Positions 1-14,582 of a stretch of 16,842 bases of DNA are shown one piece after another; the stretch's first letter is position 1, and each line of letters starts with the position of its first letter. Below the pieces are notes generated by a model, which saw only the letters and a program-made list of their open reading frames with translations, did not search any database and had not been told where the DNA came from. Both the position numbers and the translations under genes were made by a program. This stretch comes from Candidatus Thorarchaeota archaeon. Its GTDB lineage: Archaea > Asgardarchaeota > Thorarchaeia > Thorarchaeales > Thorarchaeaceae. The stretch is from NCBI GenBank assembly GCA_016840855.1, contig JAEORO010000071.1:1-16842 (forward strand). Reading direction: 5' to 3'.

Positions 1-158
1 CTAGTGGTTTCTGTCCCATCATCAACTGTTGTTTCAGTTTCATCTTCTGTTGTGTCATCCTCTGTGGTTGTTTGTGCTTTGGCACTCACAGCAGATGATA
101 ACACGAGGAAGAGTAACATCACAAGAAATGCTTTGTTAATAGTAGCGTGCTTCATCAT
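1..158 (-). CDS. 5' part of a secreted/surface protein (signal peptide + acidic Thr-rich linker); continues beyond window start
   Basis: Not in the ORF track. Manual translation from ATG 158: MMKHATINKAFLVMLLFLVLSSAVSAKAQTTTEDDTTEDETETTVDDGTETT..., open to position 1. It has a basic N-terminus, hydrophobic core and AxA cleavage-like site. TATA-like TTATATA lies ~30 nt upstream. Confidence 0.85.
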   Translation of the reverse strand, partial: MMKHATINKAFLVMLLFLVLSSAVSAKAQTTTEDDTTEDETETTVDDGTETT

Positions 159-188
159 TGAATCACTGAACCAACTGTCCAAAGTTAG

Positions 189-195
189 TATATAA
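189..195 (-). promoter_or_regulatory. Putative archaeal TATA box for the 1..158 gene
   Basis: Minus strand TTATATA ~30 nt upstream of the ATG at 158. Confidence 0.5.
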
Positions 196-377
196 CGTAT
201 GTTAAGCAAGTTTGTAGTATTGTGGAAAAAAAAGGAGCTCATAATGCTTTATTTCGATATAGAAGCTTCATAACGTTTCAGAACATTTCTATGAGCAAAT
301 AGAAATTATTTTGTCTCTATATCTGAACGGGCTCATCGTTTGACTCATTGCCAAAGTATCCACAGGAAATCAAAGCC

Positions 378-410
378 GAAAGAAAACCCAGAGGGTCTCG
401 CAAAACCCTC
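378..410 (-). terminator. Putative terminator hairpin + T-rich tract
   Basis: Minus strand GAGGGTTT-TGCG-AGACCCTC (8-bp stem incl. G-U) followed by TGGGTTTTCTTTC, ~16 nt after the stop of 427..1239. Confidence 0.55.
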
Positions 411-426
411 AACTCTTTTGTTCTGT

Positions 427-1239
427 TCAACTACGTCTGCGGTAGATAATAACTAATAGAATCACTACGCCGACACCGATTCCACCAAACAGACCAAGCA
501 ATACTGGATCGATTGGTAGAGGAGTTGCAGTTGTTGTGGGTGTTGTGGGTGTTGTAGTAGTCAAATCCACATGATTCCAGAATTCTTCGGGATCATCATA
601 AACAACGAGGTTATCGATTGCAGCACCAGCGGCATCATTGCAAATGAACTGGAGATAAATGGAGCTTGTTACTAAGGTGTGGGTCGTGTTAGCAACGATT
701 GTTCCATTGAAAGCGACCAAGAATCGACCTTCACTTGTTCTGCTTACAACAATACGGTGCCATCCCTGTAGTGGATCTATAATGATGTTTTTGTAAACTG
801 ACCAACTAGATCCTACAATTGACCAGAGAACGAACTTGTTATCATCTAAATAGGCTCCAACAGAAACAAACGATGCGTTTCCAAATTCGATAAAACTAGA
901 TCCGTTGGACAGGAACTCGACATAGATATTCCCCTCACCATCGTCATCGTCTGGTACAAACATATCGAAAACCCAGGTTCCAACACTCGTATCACTGTCG
1001 TGCCTGGCAATGTTGACATCATCATCAAGTGAGACCAAAGTACCAGATGCATGTGAGAAGTTACCTTCTGTCGGGACTGGATATCCATCATATATGTATC
1101 CGAATATCGTCCAATCTTCTAGCGGACCTTCAAAGTCCTCACTCCAGACCTCATCCGCATTAGTAGTAGTTGTGCAAACTGAAACGCAAAGCACAACCAT
1201 TGTAAATCCTGCAATCAGGTGTTTCCATTTTGTTTTCAT
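427..1239 (-). CDS. Membrane-anchored secreted protein, beta-rich (possibly ConA/LamG-like) domain
   Basis: Signal peptide (MKTKWK + hydrophobic stretch), 'WSEDFE...WHRIVVSR...IDNLVV' beta-sandwich-like motifs, TTP linker, C-terminal TM ending in RRRS. SD GAGGGTGA precedes the ATG, which directly abuts the upstream stop. Confidence 0.85.
   Translation of the reverse strand: MKTKWKHLIAGFTMVVLCVSVCTTTTNADEVWSEDFEGPLEDWTIFGYIYDGYPVPTEGNFSHASGTLVSLDDDVNIARHDSDTSVGTWVFDMFVPDDDDGEGNIYVEFLSNGSSFIEFGNASFVSVGAYLDDNKFVLWSIVGSSWSVYKNIIIDPLQGWHRIVVSRTSEGRFLVAFNGTIVANTTHTLVTSSIYLQFICNDAAGAAIDNLVVYDDPEEFWNHVDLTTTTPTTPTTTATPLPIDPVLLGLFGGIGVGVVILLVIIYRRRS
532..558. repeat. 9-bp tandem repeat (TGTTGTGGG x2 + one degenerate copy) encoding the Thr-Thr-Pro linker
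   Basis: Read directly at 532-540, 541-549 and 550-558. Confidence 0.7.
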
Positions 1240-2544
1240 TCAATCACCCTCCTTTGTCCACGCGACAAATAATTGACCATTCTGTGTATCCGCTTCTGAA
1301 AAATTGTCAAATACAGAGGATAGATGGTTGGAGGCTATCATTCCAAGAATAGTCAGACCACCAGATGTGTTGTAGATGATATCAGAAACAAAGAAACCAG
1401 CAGCCTGAAATGAGCGTGTCCAAATAGTGGTGCCATTTGCATCAAAGCACTCAAGGTAAACATCTGGGTGGCGACAGCCCATCTCACGTATACCAACTGT
1501 TTCAAAAGCAACGAATCGGTCAGGACTCAACTCCTGAATACCATGCACACAGAAGTCAACATCTCGCACCCATATGATTTCTCCTTCAATGTTAAAACGA
1601 ATGATGTGATGATAGTACCAGCCCAAGTATTCACCATTACTGCATTGTTTTATCCAAAACAGCCACAATGCTGATGTTGAATTTGTGAACACTCTCGAAA
1701 TTTCATTGCCATGATTATCAAGTCGGACTATTCCAATAGGACCATCGAAAACAGGTGCATAGGGTATTGTGAACCCGCCTGTCATATCTTCAATAATATC
1801 TGTCATCGAAGCGAAGTGGGGATATGTCTGATTCCAGATTACATTCAGATCTGTATCAATGCGGGCTATCCAAAAAGGTGAAGCATCAACAGTGAAGTAG
1901 ATCTCTTTTGCTAGAATGAATCCCCCCTCATCACAATGTGAAAATCCACTCAACCAGCCAAAACGCCAACTCTGTTCTCGAACAAAGTCACCTTCATCAT
2001 CAATGACTATGATCTGAAATAGGCCCTTATACTTGTGGTCGTTGTACTCCTCGATGTAATGCCCAATCGCAAGATCCCCATTACTCATCTCCGTTATCAA
2101 ACGAATTTCAAATGTTTTTCCATAGGTTCTGTTCCAAAGCGGATTGTAGTTCTCATCAGTCAGTATCACCCAAAGTTGACGATAAGCAGTATCGTTCTCG
2201 TGATAACCTGCAATTGCAAATCCTCCCGTAGTCAATTCAGTTATCTTTCCCCAAAACGGATAGGGACCCAAATGAATACTGGTATTGTAGAATACAGGTA
2301 TTGTTGCATTCTGCACAAGCTTACCATCCTGATCCACATCCATTAGCAATACATCGAAGCTATCTGTCGTTAATGGAAAAATGAATGGAGCTGGAACTAA
2401 GGTCGAAAATGATGAAAAGAACAAAATTGTGATTGCACCAAGTGACATTGTGATAGTCCAAGGTTTCTGATGCCAAATTCTACTCCTCGATAGAGTAGGA
2501 GGAACTGGGCATATTCTTAATCTATTTTTTATTCTTGATTCCAC
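1240..2544 (-). CDS. N-terminally anchored extracellular beta-propeller-like repeat protein
   Basis: One TM near residues 33-55, then ~6-7 repeats of 'GGF.I.G...W..(R/T)D..G...W.RTY'. Many N-x-S/T sequons. GTG start preceded by GGGAGGCGA; overlaps the upstream gene by 16 nt. Confidence 0.8.
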   Translation of the reverse strand: MESRIKNRLRICPVPPTLSRSRIWHQKPWTITMSLGAITILFFSSFSTLVPAPFIFPLTTDSFDVLLMDVDQDGKLVQNATIPVFYNTSIHLGPYPFWGKITELTTGGFAIAGYHENDTAYRQLWVILTDENYNPLWNRTYGKTFEIRLITEMSNGDLAIGHYIEEYNDHKYKGLFQIIVIDDEGDFVREQSWRFGWLSGFSHCDEGGFILAKEIYFTVDASPFWIARIDTDLNVIWNQTYPHFASMTDIIEDMTGGFTIPYAPVFDGPIGIVRLDNHGNEISRVFTNSTSALWLFWIKQCSNGEYLGWYYHHIIRFNIEGEIIWVRDVDFCVHGIQELSPDRFVAFETVGIREMGCRHPDVYLECFDANGTTIWTRSFQAAGFFVSDIIYNTSGGLTILGMIASNHLSSVFDNFSEADTQNGQLFVAWTKEGD

Positions 2545-2999
2545 TTAAGTCGCCTCCCAATTATATCCACTAGGTAAACGCCGATTTCTGTTGGAGGCTT
2601 GTCATCTGGAAGAGGGATCTCCCACTCCTCTGCCAGTGTTTGAAGAGTCCTAAGGCATTGGTCTTCCATTTCGCAAGAGCCACAAGCGCGCTCGTGCTCA
2701 TACCAAATCTGAAGACCAATTTTTGGAGAATAGAAGATGTAGGTGTTTGTATCGTAAGCAGCACAATATCCCTTTGCAATACCATATCGTGTGCTAAGTC
2801 GTTCTATATGTACTCGATTGACTGATGCTGTATGCTGTAGGAGTTTGAGGATTCGTTCCTCAGCTGTCTTTTGAGCCATGGTGACAAATGGTCGCGATAC
2901 CTTCAGATCCTTGGCTATCTCTGAGGGTTTCTCCCTCTGACGACGCCTGAGCCAGATGATTCCCTGTTGTTTTGTGGGATATCGAAGATATCTGAACAT
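2529..2999 (-). CDS. Putative transcriptional regulator: N-terminal HTH + C-terminal His/Cys cluster
   Basis: HTH-like 'PSEIAKDLKVSRPFVTMA'; putative metal site 'WYEHERACGSCEMEDQC'. First gene of a tightly coupled 3-gene unit. Confidence 0.8.
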   Translation of the reverse strand: MFRYLRYPTKQQGIIWLRRRQREKPSEIAKDLKVSRPFVTMAQKTAEERILKLLQHTASVNRVHIERLSTRYGIAKGYCAAYDTNTYIFYSPKIGLQIWYEHERACGSCEMEDQCLRTLQTLAEEWEIPLPDDKPPTEIGVYLVDIIGRRLKWNQE

Positions 3000-3003
3000 T
3001 TGT

Positions 3004-3058
3004 CTAACCTTCTGAGTTAACGCGAATACCTTAACAGAATTAACCTAAATACTTTAAC
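3004..3058 (-). promoter_or_regulatory. Array of five GTTA(A/G) boxes, putative autoregulatory operator
   Basis: Plus strand CTAAC 3004, TTAAC 3017, 3031, 3040, 3054, immediately upstream of the HTH gene ATG. Confidence 0.5.
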
Positions 3059-3140
3059 TACTTTCTAATAAGTTCTTCGGAGTTCTAGAGTTCACTACGC
3101 AACAATACTACTGCAATTGCCAATATGTTTGTACTAATCA

Positions 3141-3177
3141 CCGGCGCTTCCATCCTGTAAGAATGGAAAAACGCCAG
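3141..3177 (-). other. Strong 3' RNA hairpin downstream of the small ORF (terminator/stability element)
   Basis: Minus strand CUGGCGU-UU-UUCCAUUCU-UAC-AGGAUGGAA-GCGCCGG. Three G-U pairs work only on the minus strand. Confidence 0.6.
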
Positions 3178-3197
3178 GATCCAGTATAAGGTTTGAA

Positions 3198-3308
3198 CTA
3201 AACACCAGACCAACCGATGTCCAATTTATCTTCTATCACAGGAATGTGTCTCCGATGAGAGTTCCGATTCCTGTTCCTAGGTCCTCTAGAATTATTATGT
3301 CTGCCCAC
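3198..3308 (-). CDS. Unannotated 36-aa Arg/Asn/His-rich small protein
   Basis: GTG at 3308 lies 4 nt after a perfect GGAGGTGA (3313-3320). Translation MGRHNNSRGPRNRNRNSHRRHIPVIEDKLDIGWSGV-TAG. Below the ORF-track length cutoff. Confidence 0.55.
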   Translation of the reverse strand: MGRHNNSRGPRNRNRNSHRRHIPVIEDKLDIGWSGV

Positions 3309-3433
3309 AATCTCACCTCCCTTGTGTTTGGGAATCGAATGTAAAGCTACATGAAGTTACCACAAGGAAATTGCATTGGTGAAAAACAGATGTGGGCGAG
3401 CATCCCTTCTTCCAGAGTGGATTACCAAGGATG
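3303..3433 (-). promoter_or_regulatory. Structured 5' leader sequestering the SD and start codon of the small ORF
   Basis: Nested helices 3391-3397/3303-3309, 3378-3382/3313-3317, 3361-3369/3318-3326, apical 3348-3352/3339-3343; adjacent hairpin 3401-3433. Confidence 0.55.
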
Positions 3434-3609
3434 TTTCTTGTGACCTTTTGCATGAATATTATCATGATGTCTACATTCGCCTTGAAAACTAAGTTGCGTA
3501 AATTTGGTATTAAATATTGAGTGACCATGAAAATACAATATAATGCATCTATGGGTCCTTTCACAAAGTAGTGCTTGAAAAATCTTCTATTTTCAAAAAC
3601 CACTTTGCC

Positions 3610-3641
3610 GAGAAGCCGCCATTTACAGGAATGGCGGTCTC
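3610..3641. other. GC-rich hairpin/inverted repeat
   Basis: GAGA-AG-CCGCCATT-TACAGG-AATGGCGG-TCTC; folds on either strand. Confidence 0.6.
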
Positions 3642-3782
3642 ATCAATGAGAGGAGAGTCATCAGATGCTGGAAACAATAAATGAATTCATCCTTTCGACG
3701 AGTTTGTCAGTATAGAATCAACTCTAGAGTCTACAGCAGTAACCACAACTACACTCATTGACTGGTGAGGCGTTTATACAAA

Positions 3783-4976
3783 TCATTCAATAATGAGGCT
3801 CTGAAGGTCTCTCGGATATTTAGTCAATATTTCAATCCCATCTTCAGTTACAACGAAGGTATCACTATGTCTAAATCCTCCAAGCCCCTTCTCATAGATT
3901 CCAGGTTCGCAAGAGAATATCATGCCAGGTTTGAGAACATCCTCTGAACCTTTGTCTAAGAAAGGTCGTTCATGGCCTTCCATTCCAAGAGCGTGACCAG
4001 TGTGATGCCGGACTAGGTGAATAACTTCGCATTCTTTGAAGACCTGACGCGCAGCTTGGTCAACATCTGAGCAGTACACGCCAGGTCCAGCAGCTTGAAG
4101 TGCTGCATCCTGTGCGGCAAGCATTGCATCAAAGAGCTCATGTTGTCTTTTGCTTGGCTCACCCATGAACATAGTTCGTTCTAATTCCGATTGAACACCA
4201 TAGACATCTGAAGAAGCCCCGGTAACTAGTGTATCACCTCTTTTGAAAACAAGACCCTTCGACAGAGCATGTGGAAAATATGAGTTTGGGCCAATCTGAC
4301 CTCTGTAGAGTGCAACTGCTGGAAACATTGAGAATCCAGTAGGATAATAGTCATCACCAAGCTCAGTTATCATGTCGTGAGAACCTTGAGTACTTGCTCT
4401 GATTGTAACATCGATTTCATTGGCTCCAACTTCGGTGTATTCTTGGAGATACTTGTGTACTCTATCAGCCCATCTGGAAGATTCACGCATCAAGTCGATC
4501 TCTTCGGATTCTTTTATCAACCGCATCTCCATAATGATGTCAGGAAGGAGCTTGAATTTTAGACCTGTGACTTCCTCAAGATTAGGTCCTTTATATCCCC
4601 AATAACTTGGAGCTCCAGGTGCTTCTGATGAAACTCTGTTAGGAACAAGTTTCAGCTCATTCTTCAATATTGATGCTAGGTGATACATTGGATGTCGCTC
4701 ATCAGGATATTCAAAGTACGAAAAAACCTGAGATACAAATGGCACTTGATGGTGTACATGGTCTATCTCGAGTGATGGTACAAAGAAGTTGACATCACCT
4801 TTGTGGATGATTAGGATAATGGGTCTCTCAGTTGGAATGAATGATAGTCCAGTGAGGTAAAACACATTCTTTGAATTGAAAACAAGGATCGTTTCAATAT
4901 CCTGCTCCTGAAGGTTAGCACAAAGTTTCTCAACTCTCATTTTATGCTGGTTTGGTGTTAGGTAAGTGCGTCGCAA
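3783..4976 (-). CDS. M24-family (Xaa-Pro peptidase/creatinase-like) hydrolase
   Basis: Creatinase_N-like N-terminus (NVFYLTG), 'MRLIKESEEI', 'PHA', 'ERT', 'HHTGHALG..GHERP', 'EPGIY', 'GFRHSDT'. TTG start with AGGAG SD. Confidence 0.9.
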   Translation of the reverse strand: MRRTYLTPNQHKMRVEKLCANLQEQDIETILVFNSKNVFYLTGLSFIPTERPIILIIHKGDVNFFVPSLEIDHVHHQVPFVSQVFSYFEYPDERHPMYHLASILKNELKLVPNRVSSEAPGAPSYWGYKGPNLEEVTGLKFKLLPDIIMEMRLIKESEEIDLMRESSRWADRVHKYLQEYTEVGANEIDVTIRASTQGSHDMITELGDDYYPTGFSMFPAVALYRGQIGPNSYFPHALSKGLVFKRGDTLVTGASSDVYGVQSELERTMFMGEPSKRQHELFDAMLAAQDAALQAAGPGVYCSDVDQAARQVFKECEVIHLVRHHTGHALGMEGHERPFLDKGSEDVLKPGMIFSCEPGIYEKGLGGFRHSDTFVVTEDGIEILTKYPRDLQSLIIE

Positions 4977-5049
4977 GTTTGTACGCTCCTATTTAAAATA
5001 TCGAATAGACTTCTCAATAAGCGTTACCAATTTTCACACTATAGGAAGT

Positions 5050-7299
5050 TTAAGATGATACATCAACAGAATGTAGTCTGATAGAAAATAATCGACCGTC
5101 ACAAATATCATTTTTCTCGATTGATTCCATTTCAAAATGCCCATTCAGTGATTCGGTCATCAGCTGTGCTGCCAATAGTCCCAATTTTCCACTACTATAA
5201 TCAGCCTCTTTATCAGCTCTTCTTCCTGCTGCTTTTATATCAATTTGCCAAAAATTACTTCCTGAATGCTCAATCTCGTTCATATTAATTGTAACTCGTT
5301 CGCCTCGTTCTCGACATTCTAAAGCGCTATAGAGGATATTTAGGATAATCTGAACGAGATGATCATTCGCCATAACATATGCATTTGCTTCTTCTGATTT
5401 GAATTCGACAATGAGTTCTCCAGACCCAACTCGGCGAGTGAATATATCAAGTGCACTTACGATTGTATTCACTAAATTGGTGGGTCGAAGCTCAACAGCT
5501 TTCAGTTTATCGGCTTCGCTCAGGAGACGGACATTACTGATCAGTTGTTCCGAAAATGAAATCACCTGACGTCCGTCATCGGCAAGTCGAACTCGTTTTG
5601 TTTCAGATAAATCATGAGACCCAAGAAGCTCAAGGGATGTCATCATCATTTGATTATAATTTGAAACATCATGCATGAGAAGGTCTGCATACATGTTTGC
5701 CCGTTTATGTGAAGATTCAACTTCATGCATTGATTTCACATACAATCCTATCAAAATGGGTGGCCCAGCAAGAAGCCCTGCAAACATGAGAATTTCCGAT
5801 ACCCACCAGCCTGGAGTCCATGTTGCGTAGTATGCCTTGAGAATGTTTGGGAGAATCCACATACTCAAGAAGAATGTCACATATAGTTCTACAGGCGAAC
5901 GACCTTTCGATCCTTCAGCTAAAAGGAAAATAATGTATGCGAATGCGAACATAATGAATAAGTTTGAACTTAGAATAAGAGTACTCCCCAGTGGATTGTA
6001 CTCTTGTTCGTGAGATATTGAAAGTACTATTTGGTTTATTATTTCTCCAGCTACAACAGTAGCAACTAAGCCAGCCAAGATAATGAGAAGTTGGTAAAGT
6101 GATGGAGGATTTCCTCGTTCTAGTGGAGGTTTCTTTGTCCATAGGATCGTGAGATAAAGCAACCCAACTGTCAATAGACTTCCAACAGTGATAGGAGTAA
6201 TTGGTTCTCCATATGGAGTCAGAAATGGAAACACCAATGAGAATACGAGTACTATCGCGATTCCAGCCCACATTCCAAAAACTAGTATCAATGGATAATG
6301 ATTCCAAGATGTCCGTTTCTTTGGATAGACATACAGTAGTATCGCCATCATTATTGAGAGCGTTGCAGCTCCAAGGTGAATAATGGAATAAGCCAAGAGG
6401 TTGAAAACATCAATTGGCCCGAATAATTCTAGTGTTTCTATACCGATTGTTATTAGAAATGGAAAATAAGCTATGAGAATTAGTCCGATTACAACACCAT
6501 ATGCAGTTCTGCGCTTGTAACCTTCTGTCCGTAGGAAAGGTACGCCCATACACAATGCAAGGAGCAAGTACCCTGCCATCTGTAGGCTCTCTGCAAATTC
6601 CCAATTCATAGTTGGATTTGGAAGTGAGAATAGAAGAGATACTACCGAGATGGAAAATAGGAGTAGAGAGCTGGCTAGGTATCCAGAATCAAATGGGAAT
6701 CCATAACTCCTAAATCTTGGAATAAGGAGAATTACCGTCACAAAACCAATTAGTGTAATGCCGCCAAGAACCCAACTTATACCACTTAAAAGAACAGGAG
6801 TTATGTAATTCGAAACAAATAGCCACACGATCCCGAAAATTATCAATGGCAGAGATATGAGCATCACAATCAGAATATTGTTTGGAATAGAGGAACTGAC
6901 TTGAGTGCTCTGTTTAATGGCACAAATATAAGCACTTACAAAGAGAACCGCGAGCATCGCAAGCTCAAAAAGGTCACCAATCATATCGATAGGAACTCTC
7001 TCGACAGTGGCGTCTCCAAGAAAGAAGAGATTCTTTACTGCACTTCCGATGTGTACAAACATAGGAAAGATCAATGCAGACATGAGCATCATGTATGCAC
7101 GAACCGGTTTCCTCTGATAGGCTAAAACACTCAGCGCTGCAGGGATAGCTATCCAAAATGCCATCATGGCATGGACACCTAGTCTTGTGGCAGGTGTGTA
7201 GGACACAAGGCCACCTGGTCTTATTGCAAGCGCAACAGCCATGATAGTGATTGGTACTAAGACCAGAACCTTTGCGAAAGCTCGTCTTAAACCTCTCAC
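5050..7299 (-). CDS. Polytopic membrane sensor histidine kinase-like protein with degenerate HATPase domain
   Basis: About 15-16 hydrophobic segments, coiled coil, H-box 'DLLMHDVSNYNQ' (His at 5671-5673), 'QIILNILYSA' N-box-like and 'GKLGL' G2-like segments. GTG start with AGGAG SD. Confidence 0.85.
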   Translation of the reverse strand: MRGLRRAFAKVLVLVPITIMAVALAIRPGGLVSYTPATRLGVHAMMAFWIAIPAALSVLAYQRKPVRAYMMLMSALIFPMFVHIGSAVKNLFFLGDATVERVPIDMIGDLFELAMLAVLFVSAYICAIKQSTQVSSSIPNNILIVMLISLPLIIFGIVWLFVSNYITPVLLSGISWVLGGITLIGFVTVILLIPRFRSYGFPFDSGYLASSLLLFSISVVSLLFSLPNPTMNWEFAESLQMAGYLLLALCMGVPFLRTEGYKRRTAYGVVIGLILIAYFPFLITIGIETLELFGPIDVFNLLAYSIIHLGAATLSIMMAILLYVYPKKRTSWNHYPLILVFGMWAGIAIVLVFSLVFPFLTPYGEPITPITVGSLLTVGLLYLTILWTKKPPLERGNPPSLYQLLIILAGLVATVVAGEIINQIVLSISHEQEYNPLGSTLILSSNLFIMFAFAYIIFLLAEGSKGRSPVELYVTFFLSMWILPNILKAYYATWTPGWWVSEILMFAGLLAGPPILIGLYVKSMHEVESSHKRANMYADLLMHDVSNYNQMMMTSLELLGSHDLSETKRVRLADDGRQVISFSEQLISNVRLLSEADKLKAVELRPTNLVNTIVSALDIFTRRVGSGELIVEFKSEEANAYVMANDHLVQIILNILYSALECRERGERVTINMNEIEHSGSNFWQIDIKAAGRRADKEADYSSGKLGLLAAQLMTESLNGHFEMESIEKNDICDGRLFSIRLHSVDVSS

Positions 7300-7401
7300 A
7301 TTACAGTCTCCTGTAGAGATGGGCTAGAATATTGAGAGAGAAAAGCCTTTCTTGCGTAATCCTGTTGAAAAATCGGCTAATTCTTGCGCTGAACTAAGAG
7401 C

Positions 7402-7409
7402 TATATAAT
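7402..7409 (+). promoter_or_regulatory. Putative TATA box for 7446..7802
   Basis: TATATAAT ~37 nt upstream of ATG 7446; SD GTGGTGA at 7435-7441. Confidence 0.5.
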
Positions 7410-7445
7410 TAATTCATCATAGATGTCATACTGCGTGGTGAATTT

Positions 7446-7802
7446 ATGGTGGACAAGTTTCATCAAGTGAAAGCAATTCCTGAGGAATTGAAGTATGCTG
7501 AAGTTCCAAAACCTCTTCTAAAAAACTTCATCATTGGAAGATCGATTAGGTGTGCAGTCTATATTGCACTTTCTGGTTTGCTGATTATGCCACTCACTGT
7601 CCTTCCAGGACTTATACTATTAGTACTTCCAGCAGAAGTATCACTAGTTTCTAGAATCCGAGATGAAACAGAACTCATTCAATGGGTGAGGAACAATATG
7701 ATAATTCAGCCAAGCAATTGGGATGATGTTGAGTCGGAGTCTGAGTTGGCTCGTCTGAGAGCTCACGACAGACCAGGTGCTCTGCAAGGCTATATACGTT
7801 AA
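7446..7802 (+). CDS. Small membrane protein of unknown function (paralog 1)
   Basis: Central hydrophobic segment broken by 'PG', amphipathic C-terminus; aligns without gaps to 7962..8315. Confidence 0.85.
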   Translation: MVDKFHQVKAIPEELKYAEVPKPLLKNFIIGRSIRCAVYIALSGLLIMPLTVLPGLILLVLPAEVSLVSRIRDETELIQWVRNNMIIQPSNWDDVESESELARLRAHDRPGALQGYIR

Positions 7803-7873
7803 TTCAATTTCTCACTAGCACGATTGTGTCATCTCGTGCCGTTTTTGCCTAACGTTTGGCGCTGACCAAACTA

Positions 7874-7948
7874 TTTATATAGATTTGGAACTCTAGAACG
7901 TACGTAGGAAACGGAACGTTCCGGAATAACGGAACGATTTCGAATTCG
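7874..7948 (+). promoter_or_regulatory. TATA box plus GGAAC/palindrome operator array
   Basis: TTTATATA 7874-7881; perfect palindrome CGGAACGTTCCG 7912-7923; direct repeat AACGGAACG at 7910 and 7928. Confidence 0.65.
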
Positions 7949-7961
7949 CGTGGTGCTACCG

Positions 7962-8315
7962 ATGTATAATGCACGAATCAAGGTAAACAAAAAACACAAA
8001 GTCGCGCCTTTTGAGAACCTTGGTTTCTCTCTTGAGCGATTGATTGTAAGTCGAACAATTAGGGTTCTTGCTGCAGTTGCAGTGATTACAGGGCTAGTGT
8101 ATCTAGTCGCACTTATTCCAGGCATGATTGTTGTTGCCATTCCTGGTGAGGTTGCCGCTGCAAGTAAGATCTATGATGAAGCACGTCTGATACAGTACCT
8201 GAGATATGGTGATCCTGTCAGTCCAGGAACTTGGGAGCTGGCAGAGCTTTCAGCTGAAATGGCTCGGATAAAAGCGTTAGACAACCACTATGTTTCTCAT
8301 CAGTTCTCTAGGTGA
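7962..8315 (+). CDS. Small membrane protein of unknown function (paralog 2), 117 aa
   Basis: ATG 7962 preferred over GTG 7950 because GCGTGGTG (7948-7955), identical to the sequence before paralog 1 (7433-7440), serves as SD. Confidence 0.85.
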   Translation: MYNARIKVNKKHKVAPFENLGFSLERLIVSRTIRVLAAVAVITGLVYLVALIPGMIVVAIPGEVAAASKIYDEARLIQYLRYGDPVSPGTWELAELSAEMARIKALDNHYVSHQFSR

Positions 8316-8364
8316 GCAGATCTAATGGTATTTTTTTCCATCTCGACACATATCTATCTCCTTA

Positions 8365-8392
8365 GTGACCCCATCAGTGTTGGTGGGGTCAC
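8365..8392 (+). promoter_or_regulatory. 12-bp GC-rich stem-loop upstream of the four-gene operon
   Basis: GTGACCCCATCA-GTGT-TGGTGGGGTCAC (one G-U on + strand). Lies after the T tract at ~8331-8337, not before it. Confidence 0.55.
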
Positions 8393-8424
8393 ACCACTCT
8401 TTCCAAATCTACTGAGGTATAGCA

Positions 8425-9378
8425 ATGAGTTGGCCAAGTAACTATCCTGACACACCAGATAATGATACGAAATTTAAGGAATCCAAAATTGCTGCGCCAT
8501 CACCAACTGGACTATTAAAGGATTTCAAAGTAGGTTTTACTCTCGCGATAAAGAACATTCTTTCATATGGACTAGCTATGCTAGGAATACTCCTAGTTAC
8601 ATTGCTCCTCATAGTCACAATCCTTCTGTTCATTGTGATCCCAATCCTTATCACAATGGGTCTTCCGTTCTTGATATGGCTTGTACAAGCCATAGTAGAA
8701 GGATTCTCTGTCACCACTGGTCTCACTCTTGTCCTCTTGATTATGTTTTTAGTACTGCCCCTCCTTGGGCCATTTTTCATGGCACTTGGTGCCTTATTTG
8801 GTATGTCAAGGGAGCTTGTGGAGAGTGATGGCACTCAAGCCGAGAGTGCTTTTGCATGGTATGGCAAGAGAGGTTTCTCATTGCTTGGTGGAGGTATGAT
8901 TCATTTTCTAATTACACTTACTCCACTAATCTTGGCGTTTCTATCAATCTCCTATCCAACATGGAACCCACCAACAAATGATGAATTGAATGTCTTAATT
9001 CCACTCATTGTGATTTGGATTATTCTGATAAACGGGATGTTATCATTGACATTTCCAGGAATTATTGATGGACTTTCAGCAGTCAGAGCTGCGGCTAGGT
9101 CTGTTAGACTGACATGCCAGTTTCCGGGACGCGTACTTGGTGCATGGTTCATAATTGTTGGGATGATTGTTTTGCCAATCTTACCAATAATTAATGATTT
9201 GGCATTTCTTTGGACGCCAATTATAATTCTAGAATTCTTAGAGCAATATAGTGTACTTGTCCTCATCGTCACACTCTTCCTCGTGATTCCAGCTGTATCG
9301 ATTGTCCTAACGAGAATCTACATGATTCTGACAGCCAAAATTGATGCAACATACACACATCATGGTGGAGGTGAGTGA
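8425..9378 (+). CDS. Multi-pass integral membrane protein of unknown function
   Basis: ~7 hydrophobic segments; 'FPGIIDGLSAVRAAARSVRL' is typical of DUF975/GPDPase-membrane-like helical bundles (recognition only). GAGGT SD. Confidence 0.8.
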   Translation: MSWPSNYPDTPDNDTKFKESKIAAPSPTGLLKDFKVGFTLAIKNILSYGLAMLGILLVTLLLIVTILLFIVIPILITMGLPFLIWLVQAIVEGFSVTTGLTLVLLIMFLVLPLLGPFFMALGALFGMSRELVESDGTQAESAFAWYGKRGFSLLGGGMIHFLITLTPLILAFLSISYPTWNPPTNDELNVLIPLIVIWIILINGMLSLTFPGIIDGLSAVRAAARSVRLTCQFPGRVLGAWFIIVGMIVLPILPIINDLAFLWTPIIILEFLEQYSVLVLIVTLFLVIPAVSIVLTRIYMILTAKIDATYTHHGGGE

Positions 9379-10028
9379 AGTTGAACCCAAAGCTCTCAGT
9401 TAAACCAATCAAAGAATTCGAGATAATCACAAATCCCAAGATTATCAAACTCTTACTAGATGGGACTAGGAAGGAGATTGTTTTCAAGTATCTTGTAAAT
9501 GAGCCAATGACTGTAAAGCAGCTATCAGATGCCATGAACAGAAAACCAGGTACTGTTCTCCATCATGTACAGAAGCTAAAGAACGCAGGCATAATTGAAC
9601 TTGTTGAAACTCGTGAAACTCCGCGAGGTATAGTTGAGCGATATTATAGAGCGACTGCAAAAGAGTTCCGATTAGGAATAAGTGAGAGGATGAGTACCTA
9701 TGATGAAGAACCTGTTGCTGCAAAAGATAGGGTCAGAGCTACTCTTCTTGGTCTCTCAACACTCGGAATTCATATCACAGATTCTGAATTCGAATATGCT
9801 CGAACTACTCTTCAGAAACTAGTTGGTAGAGAAGGTGAAGTTTCTAGGGTTTACGACTCTCCTAGCAATCATGCATTTCAGAGTCTTCCCCCATCGACCC
9901 GCAGTGATGTTTCTTACAGAATGTCACAATTTCTCCTGTCACAGGATGCGATATACAAGAAAACACTCTCCGAATGGCATGATTTGATCTCACGCTATCT
10001 AAGGAGGATTGAGTCGGAGTCGATGTAA
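9375..10028 (+). CDS. ArsR/HTH_20-like winged-helix transcriptional regulator
   Basis: 'TRKEIVFKYL..EPMTVKQLSDAM..KPGTVLHHVQKLKNAGIIELVET......IVERYYRA'. Start is GTG 9375 (GTGA overlap) or TTG 9381 (better spacing from GGAGGTGA 9367-9374). Confidence 0.88.
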   Translation: MKLNPKLSVKPIKEFEIITNPKIIKLLLDGTRKEIVFKYLVNEPMTVKQLSDAMNRKPGTVLHHVQKLKNAGIIELVETRETPRGIVERYYRATAKEFRLGISERMSTYDEEPVAAKDRVRATLLGLSTLGIHITDSEFEYARTTLQKLVGREGEVSRVYDSPSNHAFQSLPPSTRSDVSYRMSQFLLSQDAIYKKTLSEWHDLISRYLRRIESESM

Positions 10029-10952
10029 ATGTTTATTGAATTCGTTTTCACTATTTTCCAAGCAAATGTTGTTGCATTTGTCCTACCTATTATCACAGTT
10101 GTTCTCTTTTACCTGATAATTCCAAGGCTTAGGAATGGGTCTGGTAGTCGGCTGAGAGGTTATCTCTCATACCTGATAACTCCTCCACGAATTGGATTCG
10201 AAGGTTCTGAATACGCAGAGGATGATAAAGAACCAAAAAATGCAAAATCTTGGAGAGATGACAAAGTCAGGCTCTTTTTCTATTATATTGGAATCATCCT
10301 TTTCCTTTCTAGTTTTGTTATTGGTGAGTTCTATGAGGTCATGTTTGACCTTCTGCTACCGGTTTCGCAGGGCACAACTGGAGAAACGAGGGTTGCAATA
10401 AGCGTGATGTTCGAAAGCGCATTCAGCGCAGGGTGGATCGGTTCACTACCTTGGATGGGCGTAAACGCATATCATGAAACTTGGAGTTGGATATTCTTCA
10501 CAGCTGCCTTCACAGATAATCCAATCTTTCTTAGCACAGTCATCTATTTCCTGTCACAAGTTTCCATTGTTGTAGGAATTGTGTTCCTGTTGCCTCTTTC
10601 TATTAAGAGAATTAGGCATTCTTTCTTCCCCTCAATGTTCTTCTTTACGACAGGGATGACAATCTTTACGAAAACAAGCTTGAGCTGTTTAGCTTATGCA
10701 GTCGCACTTGCCTTTGGGAATGCTGAATTAGATTATATCACATTAACCGCGAATGGTAGTATGATTCCAGGCCTCTCGAATATTATCGCAGTTTTACTCC
10801 CGATTGTACTTGTGATGCTGACATTTTTCCTTATACTCGGTCGAAATCTATGGAGAGTATATTATTCTGATAAAAGGTCAAGTGCTTGGTTTATGGTCTA
10901 TATCATCCTGAGTTTTTGCTTAGGTTTTGCAATTACGATGCTGCTGGTGTGA
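10029..10952 (+). CDS. Multi-pass integral membrane protein of unknown function
   Basis: ~6-7 hydrophobic segments; ATG directly follows the regulator's TAA. Confidence 0.8.
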   Translation: MFIEFVFTIFQANVVAFVLPIITVVLFYLIIPRLRNGSGSRLRGYLSYLITPPRIGFEGSEYAEDDKEPKNAKSWRDDKVRLFFYYIGIILFLSSFVIGEFYEVMFDLLLPVSQGTTGETRVAISVMFESAFSAGWIGSLPWMGVNAYHETWSWIFFTAAFTDNPIFLSTVIYFLSQVSIVVGIVFLLPLSIKRIRHSFFPSMFFFTTGMTIFTKTSLSCLAYAVALAFGNAELDYITLTANGSMIPGLSNIIAVLLPIVLVMLTFFLILGRNLWRVYYSDKRSSAWFMVYIILSFCLGFAITMLLV

Positions 10953-10963
10953 GGTGAAATAAC

Positions 10964-12157
10964 ATGAAACAGACTATGTCAATCTTCTTAGTTAGCATGG
11001 TACTCCTGGTGATCACGATGGCCCCAACTCAGGTTTATTCGGATGCGCAGGTCAATACTCCGAGAAACTACTGGCCTACGAATGAATGGAGAAACTCGAC
11101 ACCAGAAGAACAAGGATTAGACTCCAACACTTTGAATAGTATTGATGATGTAATTAATGAAGATGATATCGAACTTCATTCAGTCATCATTATCAAAAAT
11201 GGATACATTGTCTATGAAAAATATTATAGCTATTGGACACAGTACATGGCACACACGATTCAATCATGTACAAAGAGCTTCATGTCTGCGCTTATTGGAA
11301 TCGCTATAGATCAAGGATACATCGATAATGTGAGTCAACCTATTCTTGATTTCTTCCCGAATTATACAATTGACAATTGGGATGAAAGAAAAGAGAATAT
11401 CACTTTGTTCCATCTTCTAACGATGTCTTCTGGCCTTGAATTTCATGAGGTTGATATTCCATACGAAGAGCCAGAAAATGATCTTTTTGCTATGTATCGG
11501 AGTGACGATATGTGGGAATATGTTTTGGATAGACCAATGGAGTATGACCCTGGAGAACATTGGTCATATAATTCTGGAGGTATTGAGCTTCTTGGAGGAG
11601 TTATTGAAAAAACTACAGGATACAGTATAGTTGATTTCGCGGAGGAGTTCTTGTTCAATCAAATAGGAATCGACTACTACTCATGGTGGCGTGTACCAGC
11701 GAGTGGTCAATATGGCTGTAGCGGAGGATTGAGCCTTAAATCGAGGGATATGGCACGCTTTGGATATCTCTACCTCAACGAAGGGAACTGGAATGGTACA
11801 CAAGTTGTTTCTTCAGCGTGGGTAAATGTTTCAACCCAGATGTATTTTGACACAGAGTCATGGTATCAATATGGCTACACCTGGTGGGGGGTTCCGGGAT
11901 ACTCTTTCTATGAGGCAACAGGTCACTATGAACAGAAGATTTTCGTCATACCTGAAGAAGACATTGTTGTTGTGTTTACAGGAAATATTCAGGATGAGGA
12001 TTGGCACCCTTCAGATTACTTTGTGATTGAATATGTAATACCAGCATCGGAAACATTAGACTATACTGATCCATTACTCATCATCAATCTGACGTTTCTC
12101 ATTGTGGTATTTCTACCAATCATTATCATAGCTGTAAAACAAACATTTAGGCATTGA
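10964..12157 (+). CDS. Membrane-anchored extracellular serine hydrolase (class C beta-lactamase/NylB-like family)
   Basis: Signal peptide, 'YWPT..W..STPEEQGLD', SxxK = SCTK, 'LLTMSSG', YNS, 'RDMARFGYLYL', 'YGYTWW', 'ATG', C-terminal TM. SD GAGGTGA. Confidence 0.92.
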   Translation: MKQTMSIFLVSMVLLVITMAPTQVYSDAQVNTPRNYWPTNEWRNSTPEEQGLDSNTLNSIDDVINEDDIELHSVIIIKNGYIVYEKYYSYWTQYMAHTIQSCTKSFMSALIGIAIDQGYIDNVSQPILDFFPNYTIDNWDERKENITLFHLLTMSSGLEFHEVDIPYEEPENDLFAMYRSDDMWEYVLDRPMEYDPGEHWSYNSGGIELLGGVIEKTTGYSIVDFAEEFLFNQIGIDYYSWWRVPASGQYGCSGGLSLKSRDMARFGYLYLNEGNWNGTQVVSSAWVNVSTQMYFDTESWYQYGYTWWGVPGYSFYEATGHYEQKIFVIPEEDIVVVFTGNIQDEDWHPSDYFVIEYVIPASETLDYTDPLLIINLTFLIVVFLPIIIIAVKQTFRH

Positions 12158-12295
12158 TTTACTCATCCTATAAAGAGATACAATCAGAGATTGTTTCCGT
12201 TTCTTGTATCATATTGAGAAAGAAGAATCCACTGCGGCCATCAACTCTGCCGAAAAAGTGGTTTCTTAAATTTCTTCAGGAATTGCATATAGTTA

Positions 12296-12331
12296 AAGAA
12301 AAATGAACAGGCTTCATTCATTGAAGCCCGT
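12296..12331 (-). terminator. Terminator-like hairpin + T tract after ssb
   Basis: Minus strand ACGGGCTTCA-ATGAA-TGAAGCCTGT followed by TCATTTTTCTT. Confidence 0.65.
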
Positions 12332-12355
12332 GTTTGTTGCTAGATTAATTGTCAA

Positions 12356-12901
12356 TTAGTACCTACGACGTCTATCACGATCGTTATAACCGCCTCTGCG
12401 ATCTCGACCACCATAGCCGCCGCCTCTACGGTTTCCGCCATAGCCGCCACCATAGTCTCGATCTCCGCCAGAGTATCCTCTACCGCCGCCGCCACCACCA
12501 CCGTAGCTGCGTCGACGTCGAAAATCTTCGTGCTCTTCCGCACTCATATCGATAGCTTCATTGACTTCTCCAATCTCTTCCTCAGCCTTGGCTAGCTCGC
12601 CGAATTTACCAATGTTAAGTCGTAGGTTTCCTCGGAACAACCCAGTATAACCGTTCTTCAGTGTATAAGTTGAACCAGCTTCAATTTCATCAATTGAGGC
12701 GTCCCACAATGGTACCTGTACGCATCCAGTTGAGTCTCCAACTGTTGCATCAGCAACGCGGTGTGTAGCACCATCATCTCGAGACGTGACCTCACGTTCT
12801 TCACCAATTGCAACCACTTTGAAAGTGATTGTAAGATTTTTCATTCGTGGCTTTAATTCAGCCACTGTAGCCTCAATAGGCTCACGTTCTTCGTAGCTCA
12901 T
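12356..12901 (-). CDS. ssb: Single-OB-fold single-stranded DNA-binding protein (crenarchaeal SSB/RPA-like) with Gly/Arg/Tyr-rich tail, 181 aa
   Basis: 'TVAELKP.MKNLTITFKV...VADATVGDSTG.V...LWD.....IEAG......NGYT..FRG.LRLNIGKFG' matches the Sulfolobus-type SSB pattern. ATG 12901 (MSYEERE) preferred over TTG 12937. Confidence 0.9.
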   Translation of the reverse strand: MSYEEREPIEATVAELKPRMKNLTITFKVVAIGEEREVTSRDDGATHRVADATVGDSTGCVQVPLWDASIDEIEAGSTYTLKNGYTGLFRGNLRLNIGKFGELAKAEEEIGEVNEAIDMSAEEHEDFRRRRSYGGGGGGGRGYSGGDRDYGGGYGGNRRGGGYGGRDRRGGYNDRDRRRRY

Positions 12902-13132
12902 TGTAAATATCTCTCGCTTATGAGAATAGCAGGTCAAACAAAATCAGGTTGTTCATCAGTGGGTATGTGTGTGTAATCGTGTCGAACCCTCACCAGACCA
13001 CGTCTTGAAGGCGCCTCATGCTTGGTAATCCTGCACTTTCTTGCTGCATATTTTCCCTTAAGAACTTGTGTACAGTGACCTTTTACAGAGCATTCCATAA
13101 GTTGAAATCATAAGTCAATATCTATTATTTTT

Positions 13133-14119
13133 ATGAGTAGAAATCAGAAATATCTCGCGGGTTCTCTCATGGCTATTGCTATCCTAGTTATTCTGATAGT
13201 TGGTCCAAGCTTGAATCCAACGCCACCTTCTACTAATCTCTCAGATTTTCCAGATTTTTTCACAAAGAACGAAGACTATTTTGTGACACGAATTGGACCA
13301 ATTCCGAATATTGACAGGGACACTTATCGACTTGAAATAAAAGGTCTAGTAGATAATCCCACGAGCTTTTCCTTAGATGAACTAAAAGCACTAAACTTGA
13401 CCGAACTACCTCTCACCATTGAATGCATTGGTAACGGAATTAATGGGAAATTAGTGGGAACTGCCTTATGGAAAGGATTCAATGTTTTAGAATTGTTAGA
13501 ATCGCTAGGACTTTCTGAGGATGCTACTGGAGTCAAATACTTGGCAGCAGATGGATATTATGCATCTCATACTTTGGATCAGCTTCGGAATAATGGTATA
13601 CTTGGGGCTTTGTATATGAACGGTGTAGAGATACCTCCAGTACAGGGATTCCCTTTGCGAATTTTAAATCCAGGATACTATGGTGTTAAACAACCAGCAT
13701 GGGTGAATATGATTGAAGTGATTGATAGACCACTTGAAGACTACTGGCAAGATCGTGGGTGGGATACTTCCCAACCAATAGCTATCGACTCAAAGATATT
13801 CTTCCCTACTGGAGTGACCTTCCTAAATAGAAGCCAGAATCTGAGGATTGGAGGATGTGCATTTGGAGGAACACGGGTAAAATTAGTAGAATATACAATA
13901 GATAATGGCTCGACATGGAATGATGCCACTATTATTCAACAAATTGATGCTGACAATGTATGGGTGTTTTGGGAAATCAATGTCAGCTTCGCAAATGCTG
14001 GGGAAATCACTTTGCGGGTCAGAGCTACTGATATCAATGATAATCAGCAAATAGCGTCAGATCCTTTCCCCCTAGATGGAACCAGTAGCTGGCCATATTT
14101 AATCATCAACGTAACGTAA
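13133..14119 (+). CDS. Sulfite oxidase family molybdopterin-dependent oxidoreductase with dimerisation domain
   Basis: 'YRLEIKGLV', Mo-ligand Cys in 'TIECIGN', 'A.WKG', 'ADGY', 'MNG..IP..QGFPLR...PGYYGVK', 'YWQDRGW', 'VEYTIDNG.TW', 'VRATD'. N-terminal hydrophobic anchor. Confidence 0.92.
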   Translation: MSRNQKYLAGSLMAIAILVILIVGPSLNPTPPSTNLSDFPDFFTKNEDYFVTRIGPIPNIDRDTYRLEIKGLVDNPTSFSLDELKALNLTELPLTIECIGNGINGKLVGTALWKGFNVLELLESLGLSEDATGVKYLAADGYYASHTLDQLRNNGILGALYMNGVEIPPVQGFPLRILNPGYYGVKQPAWVNMIEVIDRPLEDYWQDRGWDTSQPIAIDSKIFFPTGVTFLNRSQNLRIGGCAFGGTRVKLVEYTIDNGSTWNDATIIQQIDADNVWVFWEINVSFANAGEITLRVRATDINDNQQIASDPFPLDGTSSWPYLIINVT

Positions 14120-14181
14120 TATAAGAGAAGGTTTCGAGCACAAAAACTGAGATTCATTTAACTGAACTTAGGTGATGTTGA

Positions 14182-14568
14182 TTGAGGAGTATGAAGATCT
14201 ATGTTGCTGGTCCTTACACAGGGTCCACATCCGAAGAGATCGAAACGAATGTGCGAAAGGCAATGGAAGCAGGTCTTATAATCTGGAAGAAAGGGCATTT
14301 TCCATACATACCACATCTCACTCATTGGCCAGACATTCTAGCAAAAAAGCTGAATATTGAGATGGATTGGGTGGACTATATGAACTGGCATGCACCATGG
14401 GTCGATCATTGTGATGCTTTATTCCTACTAGCTGAATCCAAAGGAGCACTTCTAGAATGTAATCGTGCAAAGCAAGAGGGCAAGACCGTTTTCCATTCCC
14501 TAGATGAAATACCCACTGTAGAGAGAGCTCAAACTTGGGCTCATAAATGGGTGAATAACGATTCTTGA
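14182..14568 (+). CDS. DUF4406/DUF1937-like protein, nucleoside 2-deoxyribosyltransferase-like fold
   Basis: 'KIYVAGPYT', 'GH.PYIPH', 'CDALFLL..SKGA..E...A...GK.VF'. Start TTG 14182 (GGTGA SD) or ATG 14191. Confidence 0.8.
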   Translation: MRSMKIYVAGPYTGSTSEEIETNVRKAMEAGLIIWKKGHFPYIPHLTHWPDILAKKLNIEMDWVDYMNWHAPWVDHCDALFLLAESKGALLECNRAKQEGKTVFHSLDEIPTVERAQTWAHKWVNNDS

Positions 14569-14582
14569 AAGTTCATGAGTCA

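Follow-up and report, generated by a model that had tools for sequence, protein, structure and literature searches.

A conserved micro-protein gene and its upstream open reading frame form a putative translationally coupled cassette in Thorarchaeaceae

A small genetic cassette was identified on the minus strand of a 16,842-nucleotide stretch of DNA from a Candidatus Thorarchaeota archaeon (JAEORO010000071.1 of assembly GCA_016840855.1, positions 1 to 16,842; here called the window). It contains a 36-codon open reading frame (ORF), the small ORF, that starts with GTG behind a strong Shine-Dalgarno sequence (SD), and a 50-codon upstream ORF that runs into that SD. We find that the small ORF is a real coding gene belonging to an unannotated and new family of conserved micro-proteins, and that the region 5' of it, which a preliminary description made from the DNA letters had taken for a structured leader, is an upstream ORF under selection for an open frame. 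On balance we think it probable that the locus is a self-contained two-cistron unit of about 345 nt in which synthesis of the small protein is translationally coupled to the upstream ORF; the mechanism class, coupling, is itself already known.

The small ORF is a conserved coding gene

Pairwise comparison of five close relatives gives the small ORF a ratio of non-synonymous to synonymous substitution rates (dN/dS) of 0.09 in frame, as opposed to 0.89 and 1.36 in the two other frames. The variable columns number 15/5/23 at the three codon positions, and the stop codon is at the identical place in all five. Together with the retention of the ORF at 18 loci found by homolog search, this establishes it as a real gene. 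Its reality rests on this conservation, because neither the SD nor the ORF length is remarkable alone: the SD 8-mer is present in two copies in the window versus 0.58 expected, with at least two in 23 of 200 shuffles, which is not significant, and the length of 36 codons is ordinary, the interval 1500-5500 holding 40 ORFs of at least 30 amino acids (aa).

The preliminary description had offered two readings, a translationally gated gene for a small basic peptide or a structured non-coding RNA (ncRNA), and every element that it listed (SD, GTG, 36-codon ORF, helices, hairpins and TTTAATA box) is where it was placed on the minus strand (Table 1). It had also favored that strand, and a dinucleotide-shuffle check of both strands agrees. 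For 3433-3141 the folding energy of the minus-strand RNA is -98 kcal/mol (z -4.41; 0/200 shuffles as good), as against z -1.61 for the plus strand (13/200); the 106-nt core (3400-3295) gives z -2.89 on the minus strand (0/200) and z -2.13 on the plus strand (3/200), and for the predicted whole transcript (3484-3135) z is -4.23 (0/100). Such z-scores would suit an ncRNA in which the ORFs are accidental. However, that alternative is contradicted by the in-frame dN/dS of 0.09 with its conserved stop codon and by amino acid motifs that are kept across genera despite synonymous change, and we consider it extremely improbable. A search of Rfam, which had been suggested as a check, matched no family, with no gathering-score match in the whole window and seven weak, chance-level ones at E≤10 in 2950-3850, and ARAGORN found no tRNA or tmRNA. 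The reading as a small basic peptide gene probably gated at translation is the one favored by the dN/dS of 0.09 and by the covarying start-codon helix described below.

DNA searches identified four genomes of the same genus that have clear relatives, and gave weak SD/start matches in two more; these weak matches are diverged copies that code for 48-aa peptides with the same ends. The set of 18 loci used throughout was obtained by running a profile of seven peptides over 87 genomes of the class, and represents six genera of one archaeal family; we refer to the window's clade as A, and to the others as B and C. All 18 members share M1, R3, S7, D27, G32, W33 and G35 (alignment A6), and the conserved ends of the family are MGRHN.S at the N-terminus and D-x4-G-W-x-G-x at the C-terminus. 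With a profile built from the 18 members, the family was detected in 17 of the 85 other genomes that belong to the same taxonomic family as the window, and in none of 314 genomes from other families of the phylum, many genomes in both sets being incomplete. Two genomes, G003 and the window's own (G000), have two copies each. The second cassette of G000 (contig C84, locus L033:1501-1644, minus strand) belongs to another clade and codes for a 48-aa peptide behind a 72-codon upstream ORF that ends in TAGTG; its 5' hairpin is intact, and its SD/start occlusion is no greater than in shuffles.

In all loci read by eye, GGTG and the start codon are 5 nt apart, and this spacing was built into a pattern for scanning metagenomes. 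Six stretches were recovered, five of which duplicate peptides already collected, the sixth (L037) being a chance match. Protein libraries yielded three matches among 5.8 billion clusters and three among 1.84 billion representatives, including a hypothetical protein that its source assigns to a Candidatus Thorarchaeota metagenome-assembled genome and that is identical to the G065 frame. The family motifs were not found in longer proteins at E≤0.1, and text searches of the literature, which did not reach small-ORF lists in supplements, returned no description of the family.

Several matches were left out of the 18 loci: those in G008, G015 and G024, which lie inside a 153-aa ORF (the G008 copy alone was read, and we take it to resemble ribosomal protein uL13), the first match in G003, within a 101-aa protein, the match in G056 (E 6.6e-5), and three cassettes of genus g23 that were found late. 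The 101-aa ORF of G003 (L025:1267-1572, plus strand) is located 3.3 kb from a regular cassette and has a hydrophobic N-terminal segment together with a C-terminal tail like that of the small proteins (...RLTVIQNQQELGWSGI). It is possible that this tail is a portable module.

Properties of the 36-aa protein

The predicted protein has an isoelectric point of 11.9, a charge of about +5, eight Arg plus Lys residues and a grand average of hydropathy (GRAVY) of -1.49, with no hydrophobic or membrane segment. AlphaFold2, given the 18-row alignment, predicts no secondary structure (mean predicted local distance difference test score, pLDDT, 62.5). The window peptide matches no Pfam family, and the 18 members together match no family in Pfam, NCBIfam or PADLOC, with isolated sub-threshold matches in one to three of the 18; the PADLOC match concerns one member and a single family (E 0.00025). 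The PDB gave no match at E≤10 and the ESM Atlas nothing usable. We conclude that this is a new, strongly basic and probably disordered micro-protein. With no predicted fold and no known relative to go by, its function is a guess, and most likely it acts by binding nucleic acid, the ribosome or a protein partner.

The tails in clades B and C, ...GLGW[AS]G[AC], loosely resemble the ...GLGSLFG tail of the ribosomal stalk protein of the genus, which recruits translation GTPases. The stalk sequence was taken from relatives, as a search of the window's own genome, which is 92% complete, did not return PF00428. We rejected this likeness, because it is loose and because the invariant residues of the family are those of G-W-x-G and not the hydrophobic positions of the stalk.

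A convergent radical SAM gene just downstream of the clade-B cassettes in G000 (C84), G001 and G003, and the invariant Trp close to the C-terminus of the peptide, raise the idea that the small ORF encodes the precursor of a ribosomally synthesized and post-translationally modified peptide (RiPP) on which the neighboring enzyme acts. However, the window has no radical SAM gene, the enzyme's NCBIfam matches are generic and far under the cut-offs, and an orthologue (at least 59% identity, about 290 aa) is present in 76 of 86 genomes of the family at E≤1e-20, as opposed to 17 of 85 for the peptide. The RiPP reading is unsupported because the enzyme gene is near-universal in the family and does not track the cassette, and we hold it to be highly improbable.

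The upstream region is an open reading frame

The preliminary description had a TTTAATA box driving a leader of about 170 nt. The box stands, a TATA box being present in 16 of the 18 loci, but the non-coding leader does not, as the same number of loci have an open ORF in its place. The upstream ORF has 48-72 codons from an invariant ATG, which is followed by A in 18/18 loci. Between this ATG and the SD there are just two stops in frame 0, both representing one event shared by G064 and G066, compared with 55 and 52 in frames 1 and 2, and the chance of an open frame in shuffles is 0.02-0.16 per locus. Among relatives the lengths differ by multiples of three (50, 52, 64 and 72 codons). The stop codon begins between -7 and +11 nt from the start of the small ORF in 16/18 loci (-7 for the TGA of the window), and the junctions take the form of a TGA inside the SD, TAGTG, TAATG or TGAGTG. 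The former leader is an ORF under selection for an open frame, and to judge from its sequence features it is probably translated.

The upstream peptide itself is unconstrained in sequence in the window's clade, where its dN/dS is 0.69 in frame versus 0.80 and 0.71 off frame, and the variable columns are spread 27/29/25 over the codon positions. A programmed frameshift fusion of the two ORFs is unlikely, since their frame relation varies among clades. A longer ORF of 96 aa (3603-3313) was considered and rejected: it is the upstream ORF extended through the promoter, and its extra part is not common to G042.

These data bear on the possibility that the upstream ORF codes for a functional partner, giving a two-protein system (a small complex, or something like a toxin and its antidote) whose stoichiometry is set by coupling. 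Coupled pairs reportedly often encode subunits of a complex. The frame is kept open, and the clade-B upstream peptides have common ends (MK[RL][ST][IL]TQ... and ...CQEVI) and dN/dS values below 1 (0.07/0.19 for G001/G012 and 0.16/0.33 for G066/G064). Against this, it is the SD sequence that dictates the common C-terminal residues, the window's clade has a dN/dS no different from that of the off frames and an even distribution of variable columns, and the peptides are unalignable between clades, that of the window having no Pfam match. On present evidence we judge a partner protein unlikely.

The preliminary description had instead invoked the logic of RNA thermometers and riboswitches, in which temperature or a ligand causes an untranslated structured leader to open the SD and start codon. 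The strong minus-strand fold, the conserved start-codon helix and the conserved local SD hairpin would all be expected of such a leader. But it explains neither why the upstream frame is open nor why it stops at the SD, no Rfam family is matched, clades B and C are unoccluded, and the clades, whose leaders are unalignable with one another, have no more in common than the 5' motif and the SD/start region, with no sensing core. We regard a thermometer or riboswitch as rather unlikely and prefer coupling, because the former leader is kept open as an ORF that ends at the SD or start codon.

A covarying helix at the start codon

Minimum-free-energy folding of 3400-3295 reproduces the nested helices of the preliminary description, which were proposed to lock both SD and start codon. 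We evaluated them in alignment A5, which contains nine sequences of clade A and in which slid controls have about 40-50% of cells paired. The helix GCCCACA/UGUGGGC, whose 5' arm corresponds to codons 23-25 of the upstream ORF, is paired in 95.2% of cells and has 2/7 pairs changed on both sides, one of them a C-G to U-A change at a locus that starts with AUG and not GUG. The SD helices as drawn fared less well, with UCACC/GGUGA paired in 66.7% of cells (1/5 pairs changed on both sides) and UUCCUUGUG/CACAAGGGA in 59.3% (4/9 pairs); the apical stem is paired in 56.4% (1/5 pairs). A local element, UCGAUUCCC/GGGAGGUGA, is paired in 93.5% of cells with 0/8 pairs changed on both sides, and is the RNAalifold consensus. 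The start-codon helix alone is conserved among the nested helices; at the SD it is the local hairpin that is conserved, and not the pairings first drawn. In the hairpin at 3433-3401, the outer stem is paired in 77% of cells over five sequences, and 1/7 pairs has both members changed, from C-G to U-A; the inner UCCA/UGGA stem is 95% paired in five close relatives.

Modelling suggests that this pairing buries the initiation site. From the SD to five positions past the start the unpaired probability is 0.05 in the window, compared with 0.30 when the leader is shuffled (z -3.3), and z is -1.66 or below in 5/9 clade-A loci (the window -3.3, G014 -3.1, G043 -2.3, G060 -1.7 and G081 -1.7). Masking 30 nt at codon 25 of the upstream ORF raises the modelled accessibility in 9/9 clade-A loci (from 0.05 to 0.32 in the window), and masking at codon 10 changes it in one of nine (G042, from 0.21 to 0.30). 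In these models only the window's clade has its start codon locked.

Promoter, conserved 5' motif and 3' end

A TTTA[AT][ATC] box, scored as a pattern, is present 47-50 nt 5' of the upstream ATG in 16/18 loci, and AGGCGA is found 17-18 nt 5' of it in 18/18. In 13/18 loci the 5' motif forms half of a hairpin, AAGGC..GCCUU, the 3' half of which is absent from the window's clade (five loci). We combined TATA box, spacing, AGGCGA, spacing and ATGA into a single signature. In the window's own genome this occurs at the two cassettes alone, with no match in a reversed control, and over 86 genomes of the family there are 28 matches versus 14 in the reversed control. Of these, 14 are at known cassettes and 3 at the late-found ones of g23; two of the remaining 11 were inspected (L056 and L073) and both resemble chance.

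At the other end, the 90 nt past the small-ORF stop fold at -29.2 kcal/mol (z -4.3), and a strong hairpin (z≤-2) of unrelated sequence lies 3' of the small ORF in 13/18 loci. A bacterial-type scan found no terminator-like site, and promoter-like sites close to expectation. No neighboring genes are common to different clades. Given the signature's restriction to the two cassettes of its own genome, the absence of shared neighbors and the recurrent 3' hairpins, the cassette appears to be an autonomous unit.

The 5' motif AGGCGAU is one base off the SD core of the small ORF, AGGUGAU, and, with about 11 nt between GAU and the upstream ATG, is too distant for an ordinary SD. In the window's clade its GGCGA can pair with UCGCC at 3395-3399, overlapping the GCCCACA arm; this duplex is absent from the minimum-free-energy fold and is calculated at -8.9 kcal/mol, compared with -17.9 kcal/mol for the start-codon pairing. 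It could serve as an alternative pairing in that clade, which has no local 5' hairpin. A fold-back between AAGG and CCUU at the two ends of the predicted full transcript was rejected, having 4 bp only and no conservation that we could find.

A model of translational coupling

We propose that the promoter (TATA box at 3514-3508) would start an mRNA near 3484, at AAGGCGA, and that the upstream ORF would begin about 19 nt further on, at 3465, without an SD. Its ribosomes would pass the GCCCACA arm (codons 23-25) and the local anti-SD element and would stop in the SD. In the free mRNA the very strong SD and the GUG of the second cistron would be base-paired; ribosomes on the upstream ORF would melt these helices and bring a terminating ribosome to the start site, so that synthesis of the 36-aa protein would be slaved to upstream translation through RNA unfolding and termination-reinitiation. 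The 3' hairpin would end the unit. The two ORFs are co-directional, their stop-start spacing falls in the range of recognized coupled pairs (overlap, or a gap of up to about 30 nt), and an inhibitory structure at the start with its other arm in the upstream ORF is present in clade A and absent from clades B and C.

According to one review, coupling works at such stop-start spacings and fades past about 30 nt, and both unfolding and reinitiation models have been put forward (PMC12548453). Of the pairs that it covers, rpmI-rplT of E. coli, coat-lysis of phage MS2 and genes VII-IX of f1 resemble the present case in that the upstream ORF holds the sequence pairing with the ribosome-binding site, the SD is inside the upstream ORF and the stop-start spacing is short. 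They differ from it in that here both cistrons are very short, at 50 and 36 codons, the upstream peptide is apparently unconstrained, and what seems to be a stand-alone unit with its own promoter and 3' hairpin belongs to an Asgard archaeon. Another report describes strict coupling for 13 of the 14 overlapping pairs that it examined in Haloferax volcanii and E. coli (PMC6728339), and those pairs likewise have overlapping or adjacent stop and start codons and an SD 5' of the second gene. They are ordinary protein genes, whereas here the first ORF lacks an SD and lies near the 5' end, and the window's clade adds a covarying long-range helix.

Several observations count against the model as drawn. 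The coupling itself we infer from nucleotide sequence. The open-frame rule is broken in genus g23: in G064 and G066 the frame stops 52 nt early, and the late-found cassettes (L058, L077 and L078) each have one internal frame-0 stop compared with two to five in the other frames, a result that argues against a universal rule. The upstream ORF has no SD, and its AUG lies 3-4 nt past the 5' hairpin in most loci. The covariation comes from nine related sequences, and 11-22 of 500 column shuffles match the whole-structure values; the local anti-SD hairpin never covaries, and what speaks for it is its conservation. In 9/18 loci, those of clades B and C, there is no occlusion beyond that of shuffles (z -0.5 to +0.7), and the strong exposed SD there could permit independent initiation. 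Finally, the peptide has neither a predicted fold (pLDDT 62) nor a known relative, and any activity ascribed to it is a guess.

The late-found g23 cassettes represent an extra type, with a 51-aa product that keeps MGKHNNH... and has no GW tail.

Dependence of a small peptide on another frame is familiar from hok/mok/sok of plasmid R1, in which translation of the peptide depends on an upstream or overlapping frame and the mRNA is folded shut. A type I toxin-like module of this kind, with a harmful peptide, a required upstream frame and repression by mRNA folding and an as yet unseen antisense RNA, would be in keeping with the apparently tight translational lock, the patchy distribution (17/85), the possibility of more than one copy per genome and the variable contexts, one of which includes an IS605 OrfB/TnpB gene. 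Yet the peptide is hydrophilic and lacks a membrane segment, unlike the hydrophobic type I toxins, a difference that the preliminary description had correctly drawn and that the GRAVY value bears out. PADLOC recognizes one member of 18, a conserved antisense promoter was not found by eye, without a formal test, and no antisense RNA was seen on the opposite strand by the same means. Here, too, the upstream frame ends at the start codon and does not overlap most of the gene. We consider a type I-like module very unlikely. Attenuation of the ermC/cat type also places a leader ORF 5' of a hairpin-sequestered SD. There the leader ends well before the hairpin and encodes a conserved stalling peptide, whereas the ORF described here extends into the SD and encodes a peptide that can vary freely (dN/dS 0.69), so that it falls outside that class.

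Translational coupling is thus the reading that we carry forward. A more speculative extension, which we regard as quite doubtful, is that the family comprises disordered, Arg/His-rich micro-proteins with fixed termini, specific to an Asgard lineage and licensed only by translation of an SD-less upstream frame close to the 5' end, as an archaeal counterpart of hok/mok, and that these act as dose-sensitive effectors on the ribosome or nucleic acid.

Hardly any work exists on small proteins and post-transcriptional control in Asgard archaea, which are not yet routinely manipulable. The cassette would provide a compact natural case, backed by covariation, of an archaeal start codon locked by sequence of an upstream ORF, and a candidate SD-less initiation site beside a conserved 5' motif. 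It is therefore of relevance to translation initiation and coupling in the lineage closest to eukaryotes, and can be approached with short synthetic constructs in model archaea.

Features of the locus and its surroundings

The coordinates of the cassette elements are collected in Table 1.

Table 1. Minus-strand elements of the cassette, in window coordinates
Feature	Position	Strand	Remark
Archaeal TATA box TTTAATA	3514-3508	minus	
Invariant 5' motif AAGGCGA	3477-3483	minus	putative transcript start ~3484, from TATA spacing
Upstream ORF, 50 codons	3465-3316; TGA 3315-3313	minus	stop within SD, 4 nt 5' of GTG
Hairpin in upstream ORF (second leader hairpin of the preliminary description)	3433-3401	minus	
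Long-range helix	5' arm GCCCACA 3397-3391; 3' arm TGTGGGC 3309-3303	minus	3' arm contains GUG start
Distal anti-SD helix 1	TCACC 3382-3378 with GGTGA 3317-3313	minus	as drawn in the preliminary description
Distal anti-SD helix 2	TTCCTTGTG 3369-3361 with CACAAGGGA 3326-3318	minus	as drawn in the preliminary description
Distal anti-SD arms UCACC and UUCCUUGUG	3361-3382	minus	in the window's minimum-free-energy fold
Apical stem ATGTA-GCTT-TACAT	3352-3339	minus	as drawn in the preliminary description
Local anti-SD element UCGAUUCCC	3330-3338	minus	alternative SD partner; pairs with GGGAGGUGA 3321-3313
SD GGAGGTGA (= GGAGGUGA)	3320-3313	minus	5' of GTG start 3308-3306
Small ORF, 36 aa and TAG (MGRHNNS...IGWSGV)	3308-3198; TAG 3200-3198	minus	sequence and conservation
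3' hairpin	3177-3141	minus	terminator-like or stabilizing

The cassette is flanked by a peptidase M24 gene (4976-3783) and by a 156-aa ORF (2999-2529). The latter, on the minus strand, has a weakly Tfx/HTH-like N-terminus (E 0.003-0.03, below the cut-off) and a Cys-rich stretch, and is also found in G005, downstream of the cassette there. One RNA run (X1) shared 7% of sampled words with the window; its two contigs map solely to 2900-3004, at this gene, and end at 3004 and 3000, just 5' of its ATG. Three further RNA runs yielded no contig that maps to the window. On the other side, at 3561-3677 (minus strand), there is a 38-codon remnant that resembles the C-terminus of a short-chain dehydrogenase and has no Pfam match itself. 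A full or longer dehydrogenase-like gene stops at this position 5' of the cassette in G043 and G005, the G043 counterpart matching adh_short_C2 (E 1e-66); in G042 the peptidase gene abuts instead. In G066 the cassette adjoins an IS605 OrfB/TnpB-type gene (L026:1934-2953, minus strand; OrfB_IS605 and Cas12f1-like TNB domains). Further along the window, a 719-aa ORF at 14583-16742 (minus strand) contains a bacterial TSP3 repeat, and direct DNA repeats within it, at 16020-16589, have spacings of 132, 198 and 330 nt.

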